This document shows positions 3,798-45,509 of a stretch of 64,000 nucleotides of DNA, in pieces. This stretch comes from Gemmatimonadota bacterium (GTDB taxonomy: Bacteria > Gemmatimonadota > Gemmatimonadetes > Gemmatimonadales > Gemmatimonadaceae), in assembly GCA_040389905.1 (NCBI GenBank), contig JAZJZK010000007.1:96001-160000 (forward strand), in the 5' to 3' direction. The notes under the pieces are model-generated. The model saw only the letters and a program-made list of their open reading frames with translations, had not been told where the DNA came from and made no database searches. The position numbers were made by a program, and so were the translations under genes. Numbering within the stretch: position 1 is the first letter of the stretch; every line of letters starts with the position of its first letter.

Positions 3798-4080
3798 GCC
3801 GCCTCACCGTGGGCGCCACCGTCGCGGCAACGTCGAGCGATCGGTCCTCCGCGCGTCGCAACGCTTTGAGCTCGTCCAGCAGCGACACATTCTGCGGCAG
3901 GGCCCTCGACACGGCCGCCTGGAGCTCGCGAGCCGCCATCTCGCGCGTCCACAGCAGAATTCCGTCCGCAGTAACATCGAGCAGCAGCGTATCGCCCGGC
4001 TTGAGGCCGAGCCTATGCCGCACCTCGGCCGGCAGCAGCACTCGGCCATTGGCTTCAAGACGAACTTCCACGGGCGGCAT
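3784..4080 (-). CDS. AbrB/MazE/SpoVT-family antitoxin
   Basis: EANGRVLLPAEVRHRLGLKPGDTL AbrB fold; start uncertain. Confidence 0.85.
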   Translation of the reverse strand: MPPVEVRLEANGRVLLPAEVRHRLGLKPGDTLLLDVTADGILLWTREMAARELQAAVSRALPQNVSLLDELKALRRAEDRSLDVAATVAPTVRRRGKR

Positions 4081-4369
4081 GAAATTCCCTTGTCTGGCAG
4101 GAACGTCATAATCTAGCAAGTTGGTCGTCATATGGCCAATGCCCTCTGCTGCTCCGCGGTGAGGAAAGCTTCGGATCGCGTGTCGACGCGGAGCCTGTAG
4201 CGTTGACAAATCTGGCAGAAGATGCGGACAGAAGCCGTACCAAAACATCCGTCGCCGGTCCAAAAAACAGTTTGAGTTTGTGGCGAAGAAGAGGCCCGAT
4301 GGGCGCTTGAAATGCCACCGGCTCGCACATTAGGCTCCAGATGGTACCACTCCCCAGTTCCTGACGCCG

Positions 4370-37798: not shown

Positions 37799-37827
37799 TT
37801 GACACCAATCCGGTGTTCGCCTAAGAT
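37799..37827 (+). promoter_or_regulatory. Sigma70-type promoter
   Basis: TTGACA-17 bp-TAAGAT. Confidence 0.75.
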
Positions 37828-37837
37828 GCTCGGCAGG

Positions 37838-37946
37838 GAGTCGCGTCCCGATGTTCACGTGTCGTTCAGCTATGCATATTCATGCATTGTGAGACGGCCA
37901 GACCCGAAGGCTTAGCCCTTCGCGTTGTTCATCGGCGGCGCGATTT
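37838..37946 (+). ncRNA. Candidate structured RNA (three-way junction) at the transcript start
   Basis: gtcgcgtc-ccgatg pairs with catcgg-c-ggcgcgat; internal hairpins atgcat/atgcat and cgaagg/ccttcg. Confidence 0.5.
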
Positions 37947-37994
37947 GTCGTTTTGGCCTCCTCGCACTTTCAGGAACTCAATCAATCCAACTGC

Positions 37995-38183
37995 ATGACG
38001 ACCTCACTTACCCACCTACTCGCGAACGACCGATGCGCCGGCTCCTGCCAGCGTGCCGCGAGCTCGATCGCGCGAATTGGTGGCGACGCACCGAGGCCAG
38101 TTGCAGTACAAAAAGCCTATCCGTGGACGCAGGTCAACGGAACGAACGACGCAGGCTCCGCAGGGGGAGGCCGTACTTCTTAG
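37995..38183 (+). CDS. Putative 62-aa leader peptide of the rtcB operon
   Basis: ORF ends just before a strong hairpin; its last codons are complementary to the hairpin's 5' arm. Confidence 0.55.
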   Translation: MTTSLTHLLANDRCAGSCQRAASSIARIGGDAPRPVAVQKAYPWTQVNGTNDAGSAGGGRTS

Positions 38184-38218
38184 AGTACGACATTCAACTT
38201 CGGACACGGGACAGCGAC

Positions 38219-38262
38219 AACGCCCCGCCTGCGCAAACGTGCCAGGCGGGGCGTTCTGCATT
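38219..38262 (+). terminator. Attenuator-like hairpin
   Basis: aacgccccgcctg-cgcaaacgtgc-caggcggggcgtt followed by ctgcatt (weak U-tract). Confidence 0.6.
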
Positions 38263-38265
38263 CAC

Positions 38266-38281
38266 GCTGTTTGACAAGTGA
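38266..38281 (+). promoter_or_regulatory. boxA-like antitermination motif, copy 1
   Basis: GCTGTTTGACAAGTGA; near-identical copy at 39956. Confidence 0.5.
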
Positions 38282-38517
38282 TGATCCGAAATGACGTACA
38301 CTCGTCGTCGGCCGGCGCGACATGATGCTCCATGCAGAGAGACACGCGACTCCCCTGTATGTGGTATCCGCTGTCGTTGCCGCGCTGACAGCGACGTCCC
38401 AACTGTTTTGCCTCTGGAGCGCTCGCGGTGCCCTCTCGCCACCTCGCTCCAGGGGCAGGTCAACCAACACCATTCAACCCCAGGAACGACGCGTATGGGC
38501 GTTCGCCGCGCGTCAAC

Positions 38518-38632
38518 GGGTCCGTAGCTCAATCAGAGCACGGTGTCGCCGCACGTACTCCCATTGCCTGACGAAGGCCGGACCGTGAGGAGCACGCCAC
38601 CGAAGATGCGGGTGCAAATCCCGCCGTCCCGA
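38518..38632 (+). ncRNA. tRNA-like RNA with a 52-nt insert replacing the anticodon loop
   Basis: TA-GCTC-AATCA-GAGC D-arm; CGGTG/CACCG anticodon stem; AAGAT variable loop; GCGGG-TGCAAAT-CCCGC T-arm; imperfect acceptor stem. Confidence 0.7.
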
Positions 38633-38696
38633 TTCCTGCCTGGTCGGATCATCACTGCCCAGGGCAATTCAGCCACACACTCACGAGTACCGCATC

Positions 38697-39923
38697 ATGA
38701 AGATTTTTGGTCAGCACGACGAGAAGACTCTCGTCCAGTTCAATAACGTTCGCGCGCAGGCGGTCGACGCTGCGCTGATGGCCGACGGGCATGTCGGCTA
38801 CGTCATGCCCATTGGTGGTGTGGCGTCATACCGGAATCAGGTGTCCGTCGTCGGAGTCGGTTTCGACATCGCGTGCGGCAACGCCGCCATTCGTACGGAC
38901 CTCACCGTTGCGTCGCTCGGTGAGAGCCCGGCCGACGTGCAGCAGGCACTCTCGTCGCTCGCCGATGAGATCGCGGGAACGATCAGCTTCGGTATCGGCC
39001 GGAAGAACCGCGCCGATGATGCACCGGTCGATCACGCGCTCTTCACCGACGCTTCCTGGGACGCTGTGCCCGCGAAGCACCGGCAGGCGCTGCAGGTGAA
39101 GGCGCGGCAGCAGCTTGGAACAGTCGGAAGTGGCAATCACTATGTCGACGTCTTCGCGGACGAGCGGGGCACGTTGTGGGTTGGCGTGCACTTCGGTTCG
39201 CGCGGATTCGGACACACGGTCGCGTCGGCATTTCTTGCGCTCGGCCAGGGCAAGGAGTGGGGCGAGCGCGTGCCGGAGACGGAAGTGCTGCTCGACATTG
39301 GGCAGCCGGTCGGCCACGACTATTGGCACCTGATGAATCTTGCAGGCGAGTACGCGTACGCCGGACGCGAATGGGTTGCCCGCAAGGTTGTCTCGCTCCT
39401 TGGGGGGACCGAGATGGAACTCGTGCACAACCACCACAACTTCGCGTGGAAGGAAGAGCACGATGGTGAAGAGGTGATCGTCATCCGGAAGGGCGCGACG
39501 CCTGCGTTTCCTGGGCAGAAGGGTTTTGTCGGCGGTTCGATGGGTGACGACGCCGTGATCGTGAAGGGAACGTCGGCGAGCATTGCGTCAACGGAGGTGC
39601 AGAGCGCGCAGCGCGCCTCGCTCTACTCGACGGTCCACGGCGCAGGACGCGTGATGTCGCGCACGATGGCCGCAGGAAAGCGCGTGCGTCGCACGGGCCG
39701 GCAGCTGAGCCGAGGGCTCATCTCGCCCGGCATGATGGAGAGTTGGGTGAAGGAGAAGGGCGTCACGCTCCGCGGCGGCGGTGTGGACGAGAGTCCTCAC
39801 GTCTACCGTCGACTGCCTGAGGTGCTCTCTGCTCAGGAGGGGACGATCGAAGTGCTGCACGTCCTACGGCCGCTGGTTGTCGTGATGGCCGGGGAGAACG
39901 AGTTCGATCCGTACAAGGACTAG
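38697..39923 (+). CDS. rtcB: RtcB-family RNA ligase
   Basis: ADGHVGY, GFDIACG, GTVGSGNHY, HFGSRG, HNHHN, RKGATPA, HGAGR, DESP. Confidence 0.95.
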   Translation: MKIFGQHDEKTLVQFNNVRAQAVDAALMADGHVGYVMPIGGVASYRNQVSVVGVGFDIACGNAAIRTDLTVASLGESPADVQQALSSLADEIAGTISFGIGRKNRADDAPVDHALFTDASWDAVPAKHRQALQVKARQQLGTVGSGNHYVDVFADERGTLWVGVHFGSRGFGHTVASAFLALGQGKEWGERVPETEVLLDIGQPVGHDYWHLMNLAGEYAYAGREWVARKVVSLLGGTEMELVHNHHNFAWKEEHDGEEVIVIRKGATPAFPGQKGFVGGSMGDDAVIVKGTSASIASTEVQSAQRASLYSTVHGAGRVMSRTMAAGKRVRRTGRQLSRGLISPGMMESWVKEKGVTLRGGGVDESPHVYRRLPEVLSAQEGTIEVLHVLRPLVVVMAGENEFDPYKD

Positions 39924-39955: not shown

Positions 39956-39971
39956 GTTGTTTGACAACTGA
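39956..39971 (+). promoter_or_regulatory. boxA-like antitermination motif, copy 2
   Basis: GTTGTTTGACAACTGA. Confidence 0.5.
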
Positions 39972-40028
39972 CGTGAGTCTGTGGCACACGAAGTATCCGC
40001 GGGCGAGGTTCGATTCCGCGCTGTCTGA
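39972..40028 (+). ncRNA. Degenerate tRNA-His(GTG)-like remnant
   Basis: CT-GTG-GC loop in a weak stem, and CGAGG-TTCGATT-CCGCG T-arm; no convincing D-arm. Confidence 0.35.
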
Positions 40029-40078
40029 TGGTGCCCCGGCAAGGCGCGTTCGAACTCGAATCTTCTCGCGGGTACTTT

Positions 40079-40151
40079 CTCCCTGTCGGCAATGGACAGT
40101 CAACGAGCCTCCGAAGCTCGATTAGTGCGCGTTCGAATCGCGCCGGGGAGA
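40079..40151 (+). tRNA. tRNA-Arg(CCG), atypical D-arm, no encoded CCA
   Basis: CTCCCTG/CGGGGAG acceptor; CGAGC-CT CCG AA-GCTCG; GCGCG-TTCGAAT-CGCGC. Confidence 0.75.
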
Positions 40152-40167
40152 CTCTCCGCCGCACCAC

Positions 40168-40236
40168 ACCTCCGCCTGCGGACCAGGCAACGGGTTTCCT
40201 AAACCTGTCACGAGAGTTCGAGTCTCTCCGGGGGTT
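40168..40236 (+). tRNA. Non-canonical tRNA-Arg(CCT)-like gene
   Basis: ACCTCCG/CGGGGGT acceptor; CGGGT-TT CCT AA-ACCTG; GAGAG-TTCGAGT-CTCTC; the D hairpin follows the acceptor with no nt 8-9 linker. Confidence 0.65.
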
Positions 40237-40312
40237 CTGGCATTAGCAGGCTCGATGAGTGCCGCCAGCGACATCTGGCAGACGGTGCGTTCACGTCTCA
40301 CTCGGCCTATCT

Positions 40313-40385
40313 GTCTCGGTAGCTCCAGCGGTAGAGCGCCAGCCTGAAGAGCTGGGCGACGGTGGTTCGAATCCATCCCGAGACA
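40313..40385 (+). tRNA. tRNA-Phe(GAA), no encoded CCA
   Basis: GTCTCGG/CCGAGAC; GCTC..GAGC; CCAGC-CT GAA GA-GCTGG; GGTGG-TTCGAAT-CCATC. Confidence 0.9.
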
Positions 40386-40391
40386 CTCAAC

Positions 40392-40463
40392 GACCGGCAC
40401 CTCTGGCGAGGTGGCGCGCCTGCAAAGCGCGCAAACAGGGTTCGATTCTCTGGCCGGTCTCCA
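40392..40463 (+). tRNA. Non-canonical tRNA-Cys(GCA) with U73 and encoded CCA
   Basis: GACCGGC/GCCGGTC; ACCTC-TGGC-GAGGT D hairpin with no U8 linker; CGCGC-CT GCA AA-GCGCG; CAGGG-TTCGATT-CTCTG; TCCA. Confidence 0.75.
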
Positions 40464-43100: not shown

Positions 43101-43135
43101 GCCACTTCCTGTTGCGCGCAACCCCTCTGCTCCTC

Positions 43136-44236
43136 ATGAACCTTCCTATCAATCCGCCCCTTCTCCCGATGCTCGCCAAGCGCGCTGGCGAGCTTCCCGA
43201 GGGGGACTCCTGGATCTTCGAACCCAAGTGGGATGGGTTCCGCACCCTCGTCTTTCGCGACGGCAACGAGATCTTCATCCAGAGCCGAGACGAGAAACCG
43301 CTCAACCGGTACTTCCCGGAATTGGCGGACGTTTTGCTCGAGCAGTTGCCTGATCGCTGCGTCCTGGATGGAGAGATCGTCATTGCCGGCCAGCACGGAC
43401 TGGAGTTCGAATCGTTGCAGCTTCGTCTGCATCCCGCGGAATCGCGCGTGCGAAAGCTCGCGGAAGCGATGCCGTCGTCTGTGGTGTTCTTCGACGTCTT
43501 GTGCATCGGTGATCGCGACCTGCGCGCGCTGCCGTTCGCGGAACGACGCGCCGAGTTGGAAGCGCTGCTGAACAGGGCGACGGCACCGGTGCATATCACG
43601 CCGGCGACGCGCAACCGCGATATCGCCGCCGACTGGTTCCGCCGATTCGAAGGCGCGGGGCTCGATGGCGTGATTGCCAAGGGAGAAACGAGCAGCTACG
43701 AGCCGAACAAGCGCGTCATGGTCAAGGTGAAACATGAGCGCGATTGTGACTGCGTCGTCGCTGGCTTCCGTTGGCACAAGCGTGGGGACCGCGACGCCGT
43801 CGGCTCGTTGCTCCTGGGCCTCTTCGATGACTCCGGAGCACTTCATCACGTTGGCGTGTGCGCGAGCTTCACCGATGCGAAGCGGAAGGAGCTCGTCACC
43901 CTCCTCGAGCCGTTCCGTGTCGACGCCCTCGTCAACCATCCATGGCGCGAATGGGCCGCGCATCAGACGGATGACACAGGTGCGCAGCGAAAGCCCGGCG
44001 GCGGAAGCCGGTGGAGCCAAGGGAAGGACCTGTCGTGGGAGCCCTTGCGCCCGGAACTCGTCGTCGAGGTGGCCTATGACCACATGCAGGGCGCGCGCTT
44101 TCGTCACACGGCGCAATTCCGCCGGTGGCGCAGCGACAAACGCCCAGTGGACTGCACGTTCGCGCAGCTCGAAGTTGTTCCGCCGCAGGAGTTGATGGCT
44201 ATCTTCGCCGGTACATCTCGCGCCACACGCGCGTAG
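43136..44236 (+). CDS. ligC: ATP-dependent DNA ligase, LigC type
   Basis: FEPKWDGFR, LDGEIV, GLDGVIAK, EVAYDHMQGARFRHTAQFRRWR. Confidence 0.9.
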   Translation: MNLPINPPLLPMLAKRAGELPEGDSWIFEPKWDGFRTLVFRDGNEIFIQSRDEKPLNRYFPELADVLLEQLPDRCVLDGEIVIAGQHGLEFESLQLRLHPAESRVRKLAEAMPSSVVFFDVLCIGDRDLRALPFAERRAELEALLNRATAPVHITPATRNRDIAADWFRRFEGAGLDGVIAKGETSSYEPNKRVMVKVKHERDCDCVVAGFRWHKRGDRDAVGSLLLGLFDDSGALHHVGVCASFTDAKRKELVTLLEPFRVDALVNHPWREWAAHQTDDTGAQRKPGGGSRWSQGKDLSWEPLRPELVVEVAYDHMQGARFRHTAQFRRWRSDKRPVDCTFAQLEVVPPQELMAIFAGTSRATRA

Positions 44237-45509
44237 GATCGTCGTCTGGATCGGGCGTCACCTGCGGTGGCCGAATCGCTTCGGGCACGGCTCGAAGATT
44301 CACTCGAATGCGCGTCCACGTCGACGAGCGGCCGCGCATCGAATCGACGAGTACGTCGTCAACGGCGAGATGGGACGCGACGTCGGGATACCGCGCCTTC
44401 CATCGTTCGAGCCCAGCGAGCGCGGCGGACTTGTCAGGCGAGTTCGCGACGACGATGAGCGGCATCTTGGCGCGCGGAGCACGTTTGCCCGCCGTTGTCT
44501 TCGCCGCGCCCTTCGCACGCGACGGTGCCACGCGGGGCGCTTCTCCATCCATTTTGCGAAAGTGCGGCGGCCAGGGCGCGTCGCTGATCCCCGCCGCTTC
44601 ATCGCGATCCGCGAGCGCGAGCAGCGCGTCGAGCGATCCAACCGAGCCATCCATCGCAGCGTGCGGATCTCCAATGTCCGCGAAGCGCGCGGGCATAGAG
44701 AGGACTGTAAAGTCCGCCGGGTCGCAGAGCGGGACTTCCGCCCACGCTAGCGGTGCGGACACACGCGCATCGGGGAGCGGCCGAATAGAGTAGGCCGACG
44801 CCGTCGTTCGATCCTTCGCGTTCTGATTGTAGTCGAGGAAAACGCCCTTACGCTCTTCCTTCCACCACTTCGATGTCGCGAGCGAGGGAATGCGTCGCTC
44901 GATCTCTCGCGAGAATGCCAGTGCCGCGCGCCGCACCTCGGTGAACGTCCACCGCTGCTCGATGCGCACGTTGACGTGCATGCCGCGCGAGCCACTGGTC
45001 TTGGGCCACCCGCGGAGCCCGAGCTCCGTGAGCAATGCATTGGCTTCCATTGCAACCGTACGAACGTCCACCCACTCGACGCCCGGGCCCGGATCGAGAT
45101 CAATGCGCAGCTCGTCGGGATGATCGAGATCGCTGGCGCGAACGGCGTGCGGATGGAGCTCGATGCAACCCAGGTTCACGACCCACGCGAGTCCTGCCGC
45201 ATCGTCGACGACGATTTCTTCGGCGGTGCGCCCGGAAGGGAATGACAGTGTCACGGTGCGCAGCCAGGCCGGTCGCTTGTCCGGCGCGCGCTTCTGATAG
45301 AAGGGCTCTGCTTCCGGGCCGTTGACGAAGCGCTTGAGCACGATCGGCCGGTCGCGGATTCCATTGATCGCACCGGCCGCCACCGTCATGTAGTAGTGCA
45401 CGATGTCGAGCTTCGAGAGCTGCACGCCTTTGGTGAAATACGGCTTGTCCGGATGCGTGATATCGACGTCGCGATCGTCAAAAGTCAGGCGGTGTGGTTT
45501 GTCGGACAT
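44199..45509 (-). CDS. LigD-type primase-polymerase (Prim-PolC-like)
   Basis: FYQKRAP, PDELRIDLDP, KTSGSRGMH, FLDYNQNAKDRT; convergent with ligC, 3' ends overlap. Confidence 0.9.
   Translation of the reverse strand: MSDKPHRLTFDDRDVDITHPDKPYFTKGVQLSKLDIVHYYMTVAAGAINGIRDRPIVLKRFVNGPEAEPFYQKRAPDKRPAWLRTVTLSFPSGRTAEEIVVDDAAGLAWVVNLGCIELHPHAVRASDLDHPDELRIDLDPGPGVEWVDVRTVAMEANALLTELGLRGWPKTSGSRGMHVNVRIEQRWTFTEVRRAALAFSREIERRIPSLATSKWWKEERKGVFLDYNQNAKDRTTASAYSIRPLPDARVSAPLAWAEVPLCDPADFTVLSMPARFADIGDPHAAMDGSVGSLDALLALADRDEAAGISDAPWPPHFRKMDGEAPRVAPSRAKGAAKTTAGKRAPRAKMPLIVVANSPDKSAALAGLERWKARYPDVASHLAVDDVLVDSMRGRSSTWTRIRVNLRAVPEAIRPPQVTPDPDDDPTRVWREMYRRR

Follow-up and report, generated by a model that had tools for sequence, protein, structure and literature searches.

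What tRNA-like RNAs do in bacterial RNA-repair operons, and which targets and partners RtcB has, are open questions, as posed in the accessible parts of PMC7790460 and 10.1101/312249. One locus in the Gemmatimonadaceae raises both at once: a tRNA-like element with a 52-nt structured insert lies 64 nt 5' of an rtcB gene. We analyzed this element within a 64,000-nt stretch of contig G000:C7 (the window), from a genome, G000, that is 85% complete. A sequence-only reading had offered four roles for it, namely, an intron-like dedicated RtcB substrate, a decoy for tRNases, an RNase P/Z processing signal, or a scaffold analogous to YrlA. To choose among these and related possibilities, we examined the structure of the element, its homologs, its operon, and its association with Ro60 and RtcB.

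The element is real and is larger than first described: its sequence and its homologs both confirm the tRNA-like fold with the insert, and the extent given initially, 38518 to 38632, overlooked a conserved 5' hairpin at 38488 to 38514 (this and the parts of its operon described below are on the + strand). The window thus holds a structured RNA gene of about 145 nt, in an RNA-repair operon of a soil Gemmatimonadaceae, which belongs to a family that we label T1. The hairpin comprises a 7-bp stem, an AUG bulge, a 3-bp stem, and a variable loop. It is present in 15/15 rows of alignment A1, 13 of them retrieved by BLAST without the hairpin in the query, and 5/7 pairs of its lower stem covary (folding z, -2.1). 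The tRNA-derived body (38517 to 38631) has an acceptor-like helix with a bulge (38517-24/38625-31), U8/A9, a D stem, a V loop, and a T stem, with degenerate D and T loops and no CCA. The D arm had been called intact; this holds for its stem (GCTC/GAGC, 38527 to 38539) but not for its loop, which is 5 nt long (AATCA) and lacks G18G19. The stem CGGTG/CACCG (38541-45/38598-602) encloses the 52 nt (38546 to 38597) and is followed by the V loop AAGAT and the T stem GCGGG/CCCGC with its TGCAAAT loop; like the mismatched acceptor, these are directly visible as originally noted.

Together with its enclosing stem, the insert forms an extended anticodon arm of 62 nt (38541 to 38602) that replaces the anticodon loop. 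Its parts are, in order, an 8-bp stem, a 3' bulge, a 7-bp stem, an internal loop, a 3-bp stem, a 3-nt bulge, a 4-bp stem, and a GACGA loop, and 11/22 pairs in its four helices covary. The inner stem proposed initially (cgtactcc/ggagcacg) can form in the window (7/8 pairs), but it is not the conserved register: it pairs in 183/264 cells, compared to 225/252 for CCGCACG/CGTGAGG (38549-55/38584-90). The first protein gene 3' of the RNA is rtcB (38697 to 39923), encoding an RNA ligase of 408 amino acids (Pfam PF01139, E value of 6.6e-62), with its ATG at 38697, 64 nt from the tRNA-like body; nearly all relatives of this RtcB are labeled Gemmatimonadota. The Rfam tRNA model scores the element at 26.5 bits (E value of 0.027), below its gathering score of 29, and ARAGORN calls no tRNA there. 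Since the folding energy of 38486 to 38633 is no better than that of shuffled sequences (z, -0.89), the case for the element rests on homologs.

Of 80 related rtcB loci, 13 gave a BLAST match to the element, and one more T1 copy emerged from a motif scan; all of these copies carry the additional 5' hairpin. A pattern based on this hairpin matched 120 metagenome loci, of which 118 are true copies and 2 are false matches in coding DNA. A covariance model, R1, was built from 36 sequences; as 28 of these rows were retrieved with a pattern in which some hairpin and D-arm positions are fixed, invariance in those regions is partly built in. The covariance-model search near rtcB genes suggested at the outset was borne out, with conserved-arm homologs in 14/80 loci: R1 scores 88 to 154 bits on these and the window (7 of the 14 and the window itself being training sequences), and the next score is 39. 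Overall, true copies reach at least 88 bits and the tRNA background at most 41. In the T1 fold, a consensus drawn from the same alignment that was tested, 94% of cells pair and 23/49 pairs change on both sides, a level reached by none of 500 shuffles and none of the slid controls.

According to R1, 17 of 151 genomes of the Gemmatimonadaceae carry T1. In other families of the phylum, the exact T1 pattern was found in 0/230 genomes, and R1 found it in 0/8 of these. Two patterns gave no match in viral contigs, and blastn gave none in phages and plasmids. No family in Rfam 15 matches T1 apart from sub-threshold tRNA. We found no description of T1 in literature titles and abstract openings, nor any T1-like RNA by term searches of the main texts of three noncoding RNA surveys; the string "Gemmat" is absent from the supplementary files covered (all but one) of PMC4201824. 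An origin of T1 from one housekeeping tRNA was considered and rejected, since 0/46 tRNAs of its own genome have both signature words. We also considered the 5' hairpin, which we take to resemble the 23S A-loop, as an A-loop mimic, and discarded this idea: the A-loop helix of genome G281 differs, and the words shared with 16S and 23S rRNA are short (longest exact word, a mean of 8 to 9 nt, a figure with no shuffled control). Likenesses, as we presume them to be, to a hammerhead core, lambda boxB, and the 11-nt tetraloop receptor are confined to some T1 variants.

Which parts of the RNA are constrained became clear from 115 distinct copies, of which 102 were parsed and 13 were left out as truncated or divergent. 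The arm is 60 to 64 nt long in 99/102 copies, while the D loop ranges from 5 to 64 nt and the T loop from 3 to 58 nt, with inserts of more than 20 nt in 21 T loops. The Levitt pair is preserved (A15:U48 in 93/102 and G15:C48 in 4/102), whereas the D-loop GG is found in 22/102 copies, a canonical T loop in 11/102, and CCA after the acceptor in 1/102. Core and arm are therefore constrained, and the elbow is free. Every aligned copy has the normal tRNA order, with the D arm before the T arm. The features of a functional tRNA, a 7-bp acceptor, CCA, TΨC loop, and anticodon, are not those of T1, and the noncanonical T loops, bulged acceptor, and near-absence of CCA make the proposed RNase P/Z signal unlikely.

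The arm is almost certainly not an intron. The anticodon-stem pairing continues into it through covarying pairs at 32:38 and 33:37, and position 33 is C in 87/102 copies, so that U33 is mostly missing. Removing the arm would leave no U33, no TΨC loop, and no CCA; given this and the continued stem, no excision yields a working tRNA. The idea of an intron-like dedicated RtcB substrate is accordingly not supported, with no exon boundary, no spliced product that could function, no joint in the RNA contigs described below, and 4 of 17 carrier genomes having no RtcB match.

The setting of T1 is an operon in which rsr (Ro60) and rtcB accompany an array of tRNAs and Y RNAs. In the window, it opens with a leader (37799 to 38354) that contains a sigma-70-type promoter, a short open reading frame, and a terminator-like hairpin at approximately 38221 to 38253; the 5' end of the leader, GGGAGTCGCGT, is complementary to ACGCGACTCCC about 510 nt further on. 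The leader, about 510 nt long, is conserved in 11 other loci (L001, L012, L014, L017, L023, L031, L041, L045, L056, L066, and L075). Its complementary ends are invariant, whereas the sequence of its short open reading frame varies; it contains two terminator-like elements and has no Rfam match. Judging by this layout, it is likely a tandem attenuator of translation-stress genes. A boxA-like site at 38266 to 38279 has a second copy 3' of rtcB (approximately 39956 to 39969); 2/4 genome-wide copies of the 10-mer fall in the T1 operon, and a near-identical word precedes the 16S and 23S rRNAs in G281, which suggests that the array may be subject to rRNA-type antitermination. Between the leader and T1 lies a further conserved hairpin of the array (38410 to 38456; z, -4.2), with BLAST matches in L009, L014, L022, L023, L030, L056, and others, including leaders without T1. 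A degenerate, remnant tRNA array follows rtcB (approximately 39976 to 40459), in which ARAGORN calls Arg, Arg, Phe, and Cys (40079 to 40459) and tRNA-Phe alone exceeds the Rfam cutoff.

The cargo of the operon varies among loci and includes tRNA arrays, an HNH gene, Ro60 (TROVE plus vWA), a 110-amino-acid protein, an EF-Ts-like gene, and rtcB. In many loci, T1 has tRNAs and Y-type RNAs as neighbors and precedes Ro60 by 50 to 900 nt. The protein of about 110 amino acids (L022:2600-2929 and many rtcB loci) is usually encoded just 5' of rtcB and belongs to no Pfam family; it was not found in the window's own genome, and a strict link to T1 was rejected, as each is found without the other. A gene that is EF-Ts-like by its motifs lies directly 3' of the RNA under the same leader in L096, L102, L126, L093, L103, and L152. 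In one genus, three genomes each contain two T1 copies: one is in the Ro60 operon, and the other, a diverged copy with a 55-nt T-loop insert, is preceded by a sigma-54-type site and, wherever the contig is long enough to show it, followed by a second rtcB. RtcR as the activator of sigma-54-type copies was not supported (0/5 genomes searched). Farther along the window, at 43112 to 45509, convergent genes for an ATP-dependent DNA ligase and a LigD primase-polymerase form an ordinary end-joining pair.

To look for the RNA itself, we used the homolog L107, the commonest variant, and aligned contigs from 8 of the 24 runs listed, of which seven are RNA (metatranscriptome) runs and one is of undefined type; this evidence therefore concerns L107 rather than the window's own copy. 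The L107 locus has T1 as the sole RNA, flanked by a sigma-54-type, promoter-like site on one side and a terminator-like hairpin on the other. Run X2 gave a contig over L107 3995 to 4227 at a depth of 462, against 9 to 15 downstream and none upstream, and run X5 gave contigs on the element at depths of 264 to 2356, against 5 to 10 downstream. One X5 contig stops at 3992, the foot of the 5' hairpin and about 57 nt past the predicted transcript start, against letters that we take to be adapter. Depth was 37 versus 6 in run X11, with sequence from a relative, and 7 versus 3 to 4 in X6; X1, X7, X16, and X19 were low or flat. Thus, RNA contigs of three studies have depth on the element far above that of the flanks and cross the arm, while in 4/7 RNA runs the element is not clearly raised (X1, X6, X7, and X16 being uninformative on level). 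Contigs from six RNA runs span the arm (4050 to 4110). No joint that skips the arm was found for L107 in the 7 RNA runs, in contigs that drop rare forms, and the three joints listed are all downstream, outside T1. Because contigs cannot give level, ends, or strand, these data only hint at a discrete, arm-retaining RNA from the L107 homolog.

Operon and RNA data bear on the possibility that T1 acts in cis, its fold controlling how the polycistronic transcript is processed, how stable it is, or how far it is read through into the next gene. Frequently no other RNA intervenes between T1 and a protein gene, be it rtcB, rsr, the small protein, or the EF-Ts paralog, and one contig ends at the hairpin foot. 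The distance to the next gene, however, varies from about 10 to about 900 nt with other RNAs in between, T1 of L107 is on its own between promoter-like site and terminator-like hairpin, and neither the T loop nor the acceptor suits RNase P/Z well. We consider this explanation unlikely.

A trans-acting RNA invites comparison with YrlA (RF02553), as described in the available parts of PMC4201824 and 10.1101/312249. Both have a tRNA core with a Levitt pair and a long stem replacing the anticodon loop; a GNCGAAG-like motif 22 to 24 nt before the V loop and a place in an rsr/rtcB operon are shared by part of the T1 copies. The D-arm and T-stem words of T1 equal those of the Rfam YrlA consensus, although the same words are common in ordinary tRNAs. 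In contrast, YrlA is permuted, with the T arm 5' of the D arm and a loop-closed acceptor, whereas T1 is unpermuted, ends at the acceptor, and is closed at the arm tip. The D/T elbow (D-loop GG and TΨC loop) is conserved in YrlA and lost in T1, and T1 further differs in its fixed arm length, its additional 5' hairpin, and its occurrence mostly without Ro60. RF02553 does not match the window element at an E value of ≤10, nor seven related loci at its cutoff. By these comparisons, T1 would work like a Y-type tRNA mimic yet falls outside YrlA. The Deinococcus Yrn1/Yrn2 and the small-RNA cluster upstream of rsr, as far as described in PMC4201824, are alike in that several tRNA-derived RNAs are co-encoded with tRNA-Asp upstream of rsr and in the bulged Ro60 helix; they differ in that T1 has no RF01053 match and that its Ro-type helix would be at the anticodon-arm tip, not between the two ends of the RNA.

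The Anabaena trn operon (PMC8421152), a stress-induced tRNA L-array, likewise unites a tRNA array, an HNH nuclease, and rtcB in one neighborhood, but is controlled by direct repeats in the promoter, unlike the attenuator-like leader or sigma-54-type site of T1 operons, and the available part of that account describes no T1-like RNA. Its authors suggest sponging, and the same idea has been raised for YrlA in the part of PMC7790460 at hand. T1 could similarly be a decoy that, under translation stress, soaks up tRNA-binding proteins such as anticodon nucleases; its tRNA core is retained, and this role would require no partner in the operon. Against this, the anticodon loop is absent, U33 is mostly absent, and the elbow is degenerate, and a constant arm with an invariant-looking tip is more what one would expect of an RNA with a dedicated partner than of a general decoy. 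A decoy role is rather improbable.

A possible specific partner, judging by the arm tip, is Ro60. In the window, 38566 to 38590 has a Ro60-handle-like geometry (GCC..GGCCG-N8-GG), which may be a binding site, and the YrlA motif GNCGAAN0-1G, as defined in the accessible part of PMC4201824, matches at 38570 to 38576; the predicted fold places a 3-nt bulge at the tip rather than the bulged-C Ro helix. A helix plus GGYCG-N8-GG occurs in 52/91 T1 arms, the window's included (0.6 in shuffles), GGGCCGAA on the 5' side in 22, and neither Ro-like form in 17. The strict GNCGAAN0-1G motif is found in 38/91 arms, against 6.2 in shuffles, and the Ro-like motif is on the strand toward the V loop at about the distance seen in the YrlA consensus. 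Five of the 17 motif-less arms come from Ro60-positive loci or genomes, and since motif-less arms make up 5/22 of Ro60-positive and 5/11 of Ro60-negative cases, loss does not track Ro60 cleanly.

Other RNAs of the Ro60 loci have a handle, CGGGYCG-N8-GG-GTTATC, with a spacing of 8 in 32/32 (the pattern allowed 6 to 8). These sister RNAs (L022:410-660, L092, L121, L124, L146, L147, L221, and L245-L255) are as yet undescribed and occur as tRNA bodies whose anticodon stem has the handle inserted into its 5' strand, leaving the anticodon free to drift, as shortened T-arm forms, and as free hairpins. The helix of the handle corresponds to the bulged site for Ro60 (GGUCCGA in metazoans) as given in the available text of PMC4201824. 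The strict sister pattern is present in 27/39 Ro60 loci (some of which repeat a genome) and in 0/32 T1 loci without Ro60, and is absent from G000; the sister RNAs have no YrlA match. The handle ending GGTTATC, which tracks Ro60, is found in 0/91 T1 arms, and a profile of the sister handle does no better on T1 arms than on shuffles (maximum, 4.0 versus 3.7 bits), so direct homology between the arm and this handle was undetected. The sister RNAs are better Y RNA candidates than T1.

Among the 151 family genomes, 6 have T1 and Ro60, 11 have T1 only, and 11 have Ro60 only; in other words, Ro60 is present in 6/17 T1 carriers versus 11/134 others, kin not being independent, and 11/17 Ro60 genomes lack T1. 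Many T1 copies have rsr on their own strand no more than 4 kb away; those of the window and of 11 of 17 carrier genomes do not. A quick RtcB tree places the window in a clade of 15 distinct rows with SH-aLRT support of 89, which is not strong, and no locus in this clade has Ro60; T1 is kept in 9/15 and lost in 6/15, and whole genomes of 8/9 keepers are negative for Ro60. In G281 (L218:1974-2130), the Ro60 gene is a remnant of about 37 codons, and T1 and two Y-type RNAs persist.

T1 might then be an orphaned Y RNA, functional only with Ro60 and decaying in lineages without it. The window's lineage would be one of these, as its genome has no TROVE match at 85% completeness; the losses of T1 in the clade, the loss of the Ro-like motif in 5/9 clade carriers, and a U-C mismatch in the window's arm all point this way. 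Decay is hard to reconcile, however, with 9/47 pairs that change on both sides among 8 T1 carriers of the Ro60-less clade, with the constant arm length, and with genome G102, where T1 is retained as the sole cargo of the leader. We regard a mere relic as about as improbable as a decoy. If selection persists without Rsr, a second partner would recognize both the arm and the hairpin with its AUG bulge.

RtcB is one candidate, being present in 13/17 T1 carriers versus 54/134 others; kin are again not independent, 2 of the 13 RtcBs are fragmented and 1 is of another type, and the unpublished genome G330 enters these tallies only, as one RtcB-positive noncarrier. Archaeal and eukaryal bulge-helix-bulge tRNA introns are joined by RtcB. 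T1 resembles them in its anticodon insert, its 3-nt bulges, and the nearby rtcB, but its bulges are not paired across an exon boundary, excision would give no functional product, and no joint was seen. Another possibility is a cut-and-reseal cycle, in which a 3-nt bulge would be nicked by a nuclease under stress and religated by RtcB, making a damage sensor from which nothing is removed. The two 3-nt bulges next to short helices look like half a bulge-helix-bulge site, and T1 travels with rtcB behind two promoter types; yet G102 (99% complete), G129 (95%), G365 (90%), and G376 (97%) have T1 with no match to either Ro60 or RtcB, no splicing endonuclease is known in bacteria according to the accessible part of 10.1101/312249, and the search for RtcR was negative in the 5 genomes covered. 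This reading is improbable. Finally, an intron-containing pre-tRNA, with the insert excised and the halves joined by RtcB, draws on the anticodon position of the insert and the adjacent rtcB but is very improbable given the covarying pairs and C33 at its base, the T loops and missing CCA, and RNA contigs of L107 that show no arm-skipping joint.

We therefore return to a scaffold, the proposal of the initial reading that is supported in part because of the rsr/rtcB operon, the company of Y-type RNAs, and the Ro-like motif at the YrlA position. There is, in our judgment, about an even chance that T1 is an unspliced, Y-RNA-derived protein-binding scaffold in normal tRNA order that is now partly independent of Ro60. 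The GGYCG-N8-GG geometry shared with the sister RNAs speaks for it, whereas the 11 carriers without a Ro60 match, the 4 lacking RtcB as well, the missing GGTTATC handle, and the negative profile speak against it. On this view, translation stress would activate the leader promoter, T1 would be transcribed along with the rest of the operon, and cleavage at the base of the 5' hairpin would release it. The RNA would be laid out like YrlA but in normal tRNA order, the Ro-type helix being closed at the arm tip, which would bind Rsr where Rsr exists. The second partner may be RtcB in the first place or a housekeeping RNA-handling protein, e.g., PNPase, in the second.

Such an RNA uncouples the features of YrlA: the core and a fixed arm are kept, and the elbow, the permutation, and often Ro60 are dropped. 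As T1 often occurs without Ro60, a non-Ro60 partner is directly testable, and a T1 homolog occurs in soil RNA libraries. T1 is also a natural unpermuted counterpart of YrlA and bears on the origin of Y RNA from tRNA. More tentatively, a phylum that ranks among the commonest in soil may possess an unpermuted, Y-RNA-derived scaffold that is independent of Ro60 and partners RtcB or a core RNA-handling machine, its fixed arm serving as a ruler or docking rod, within an undescribed array of at least three tRNA-built Y-type classes.
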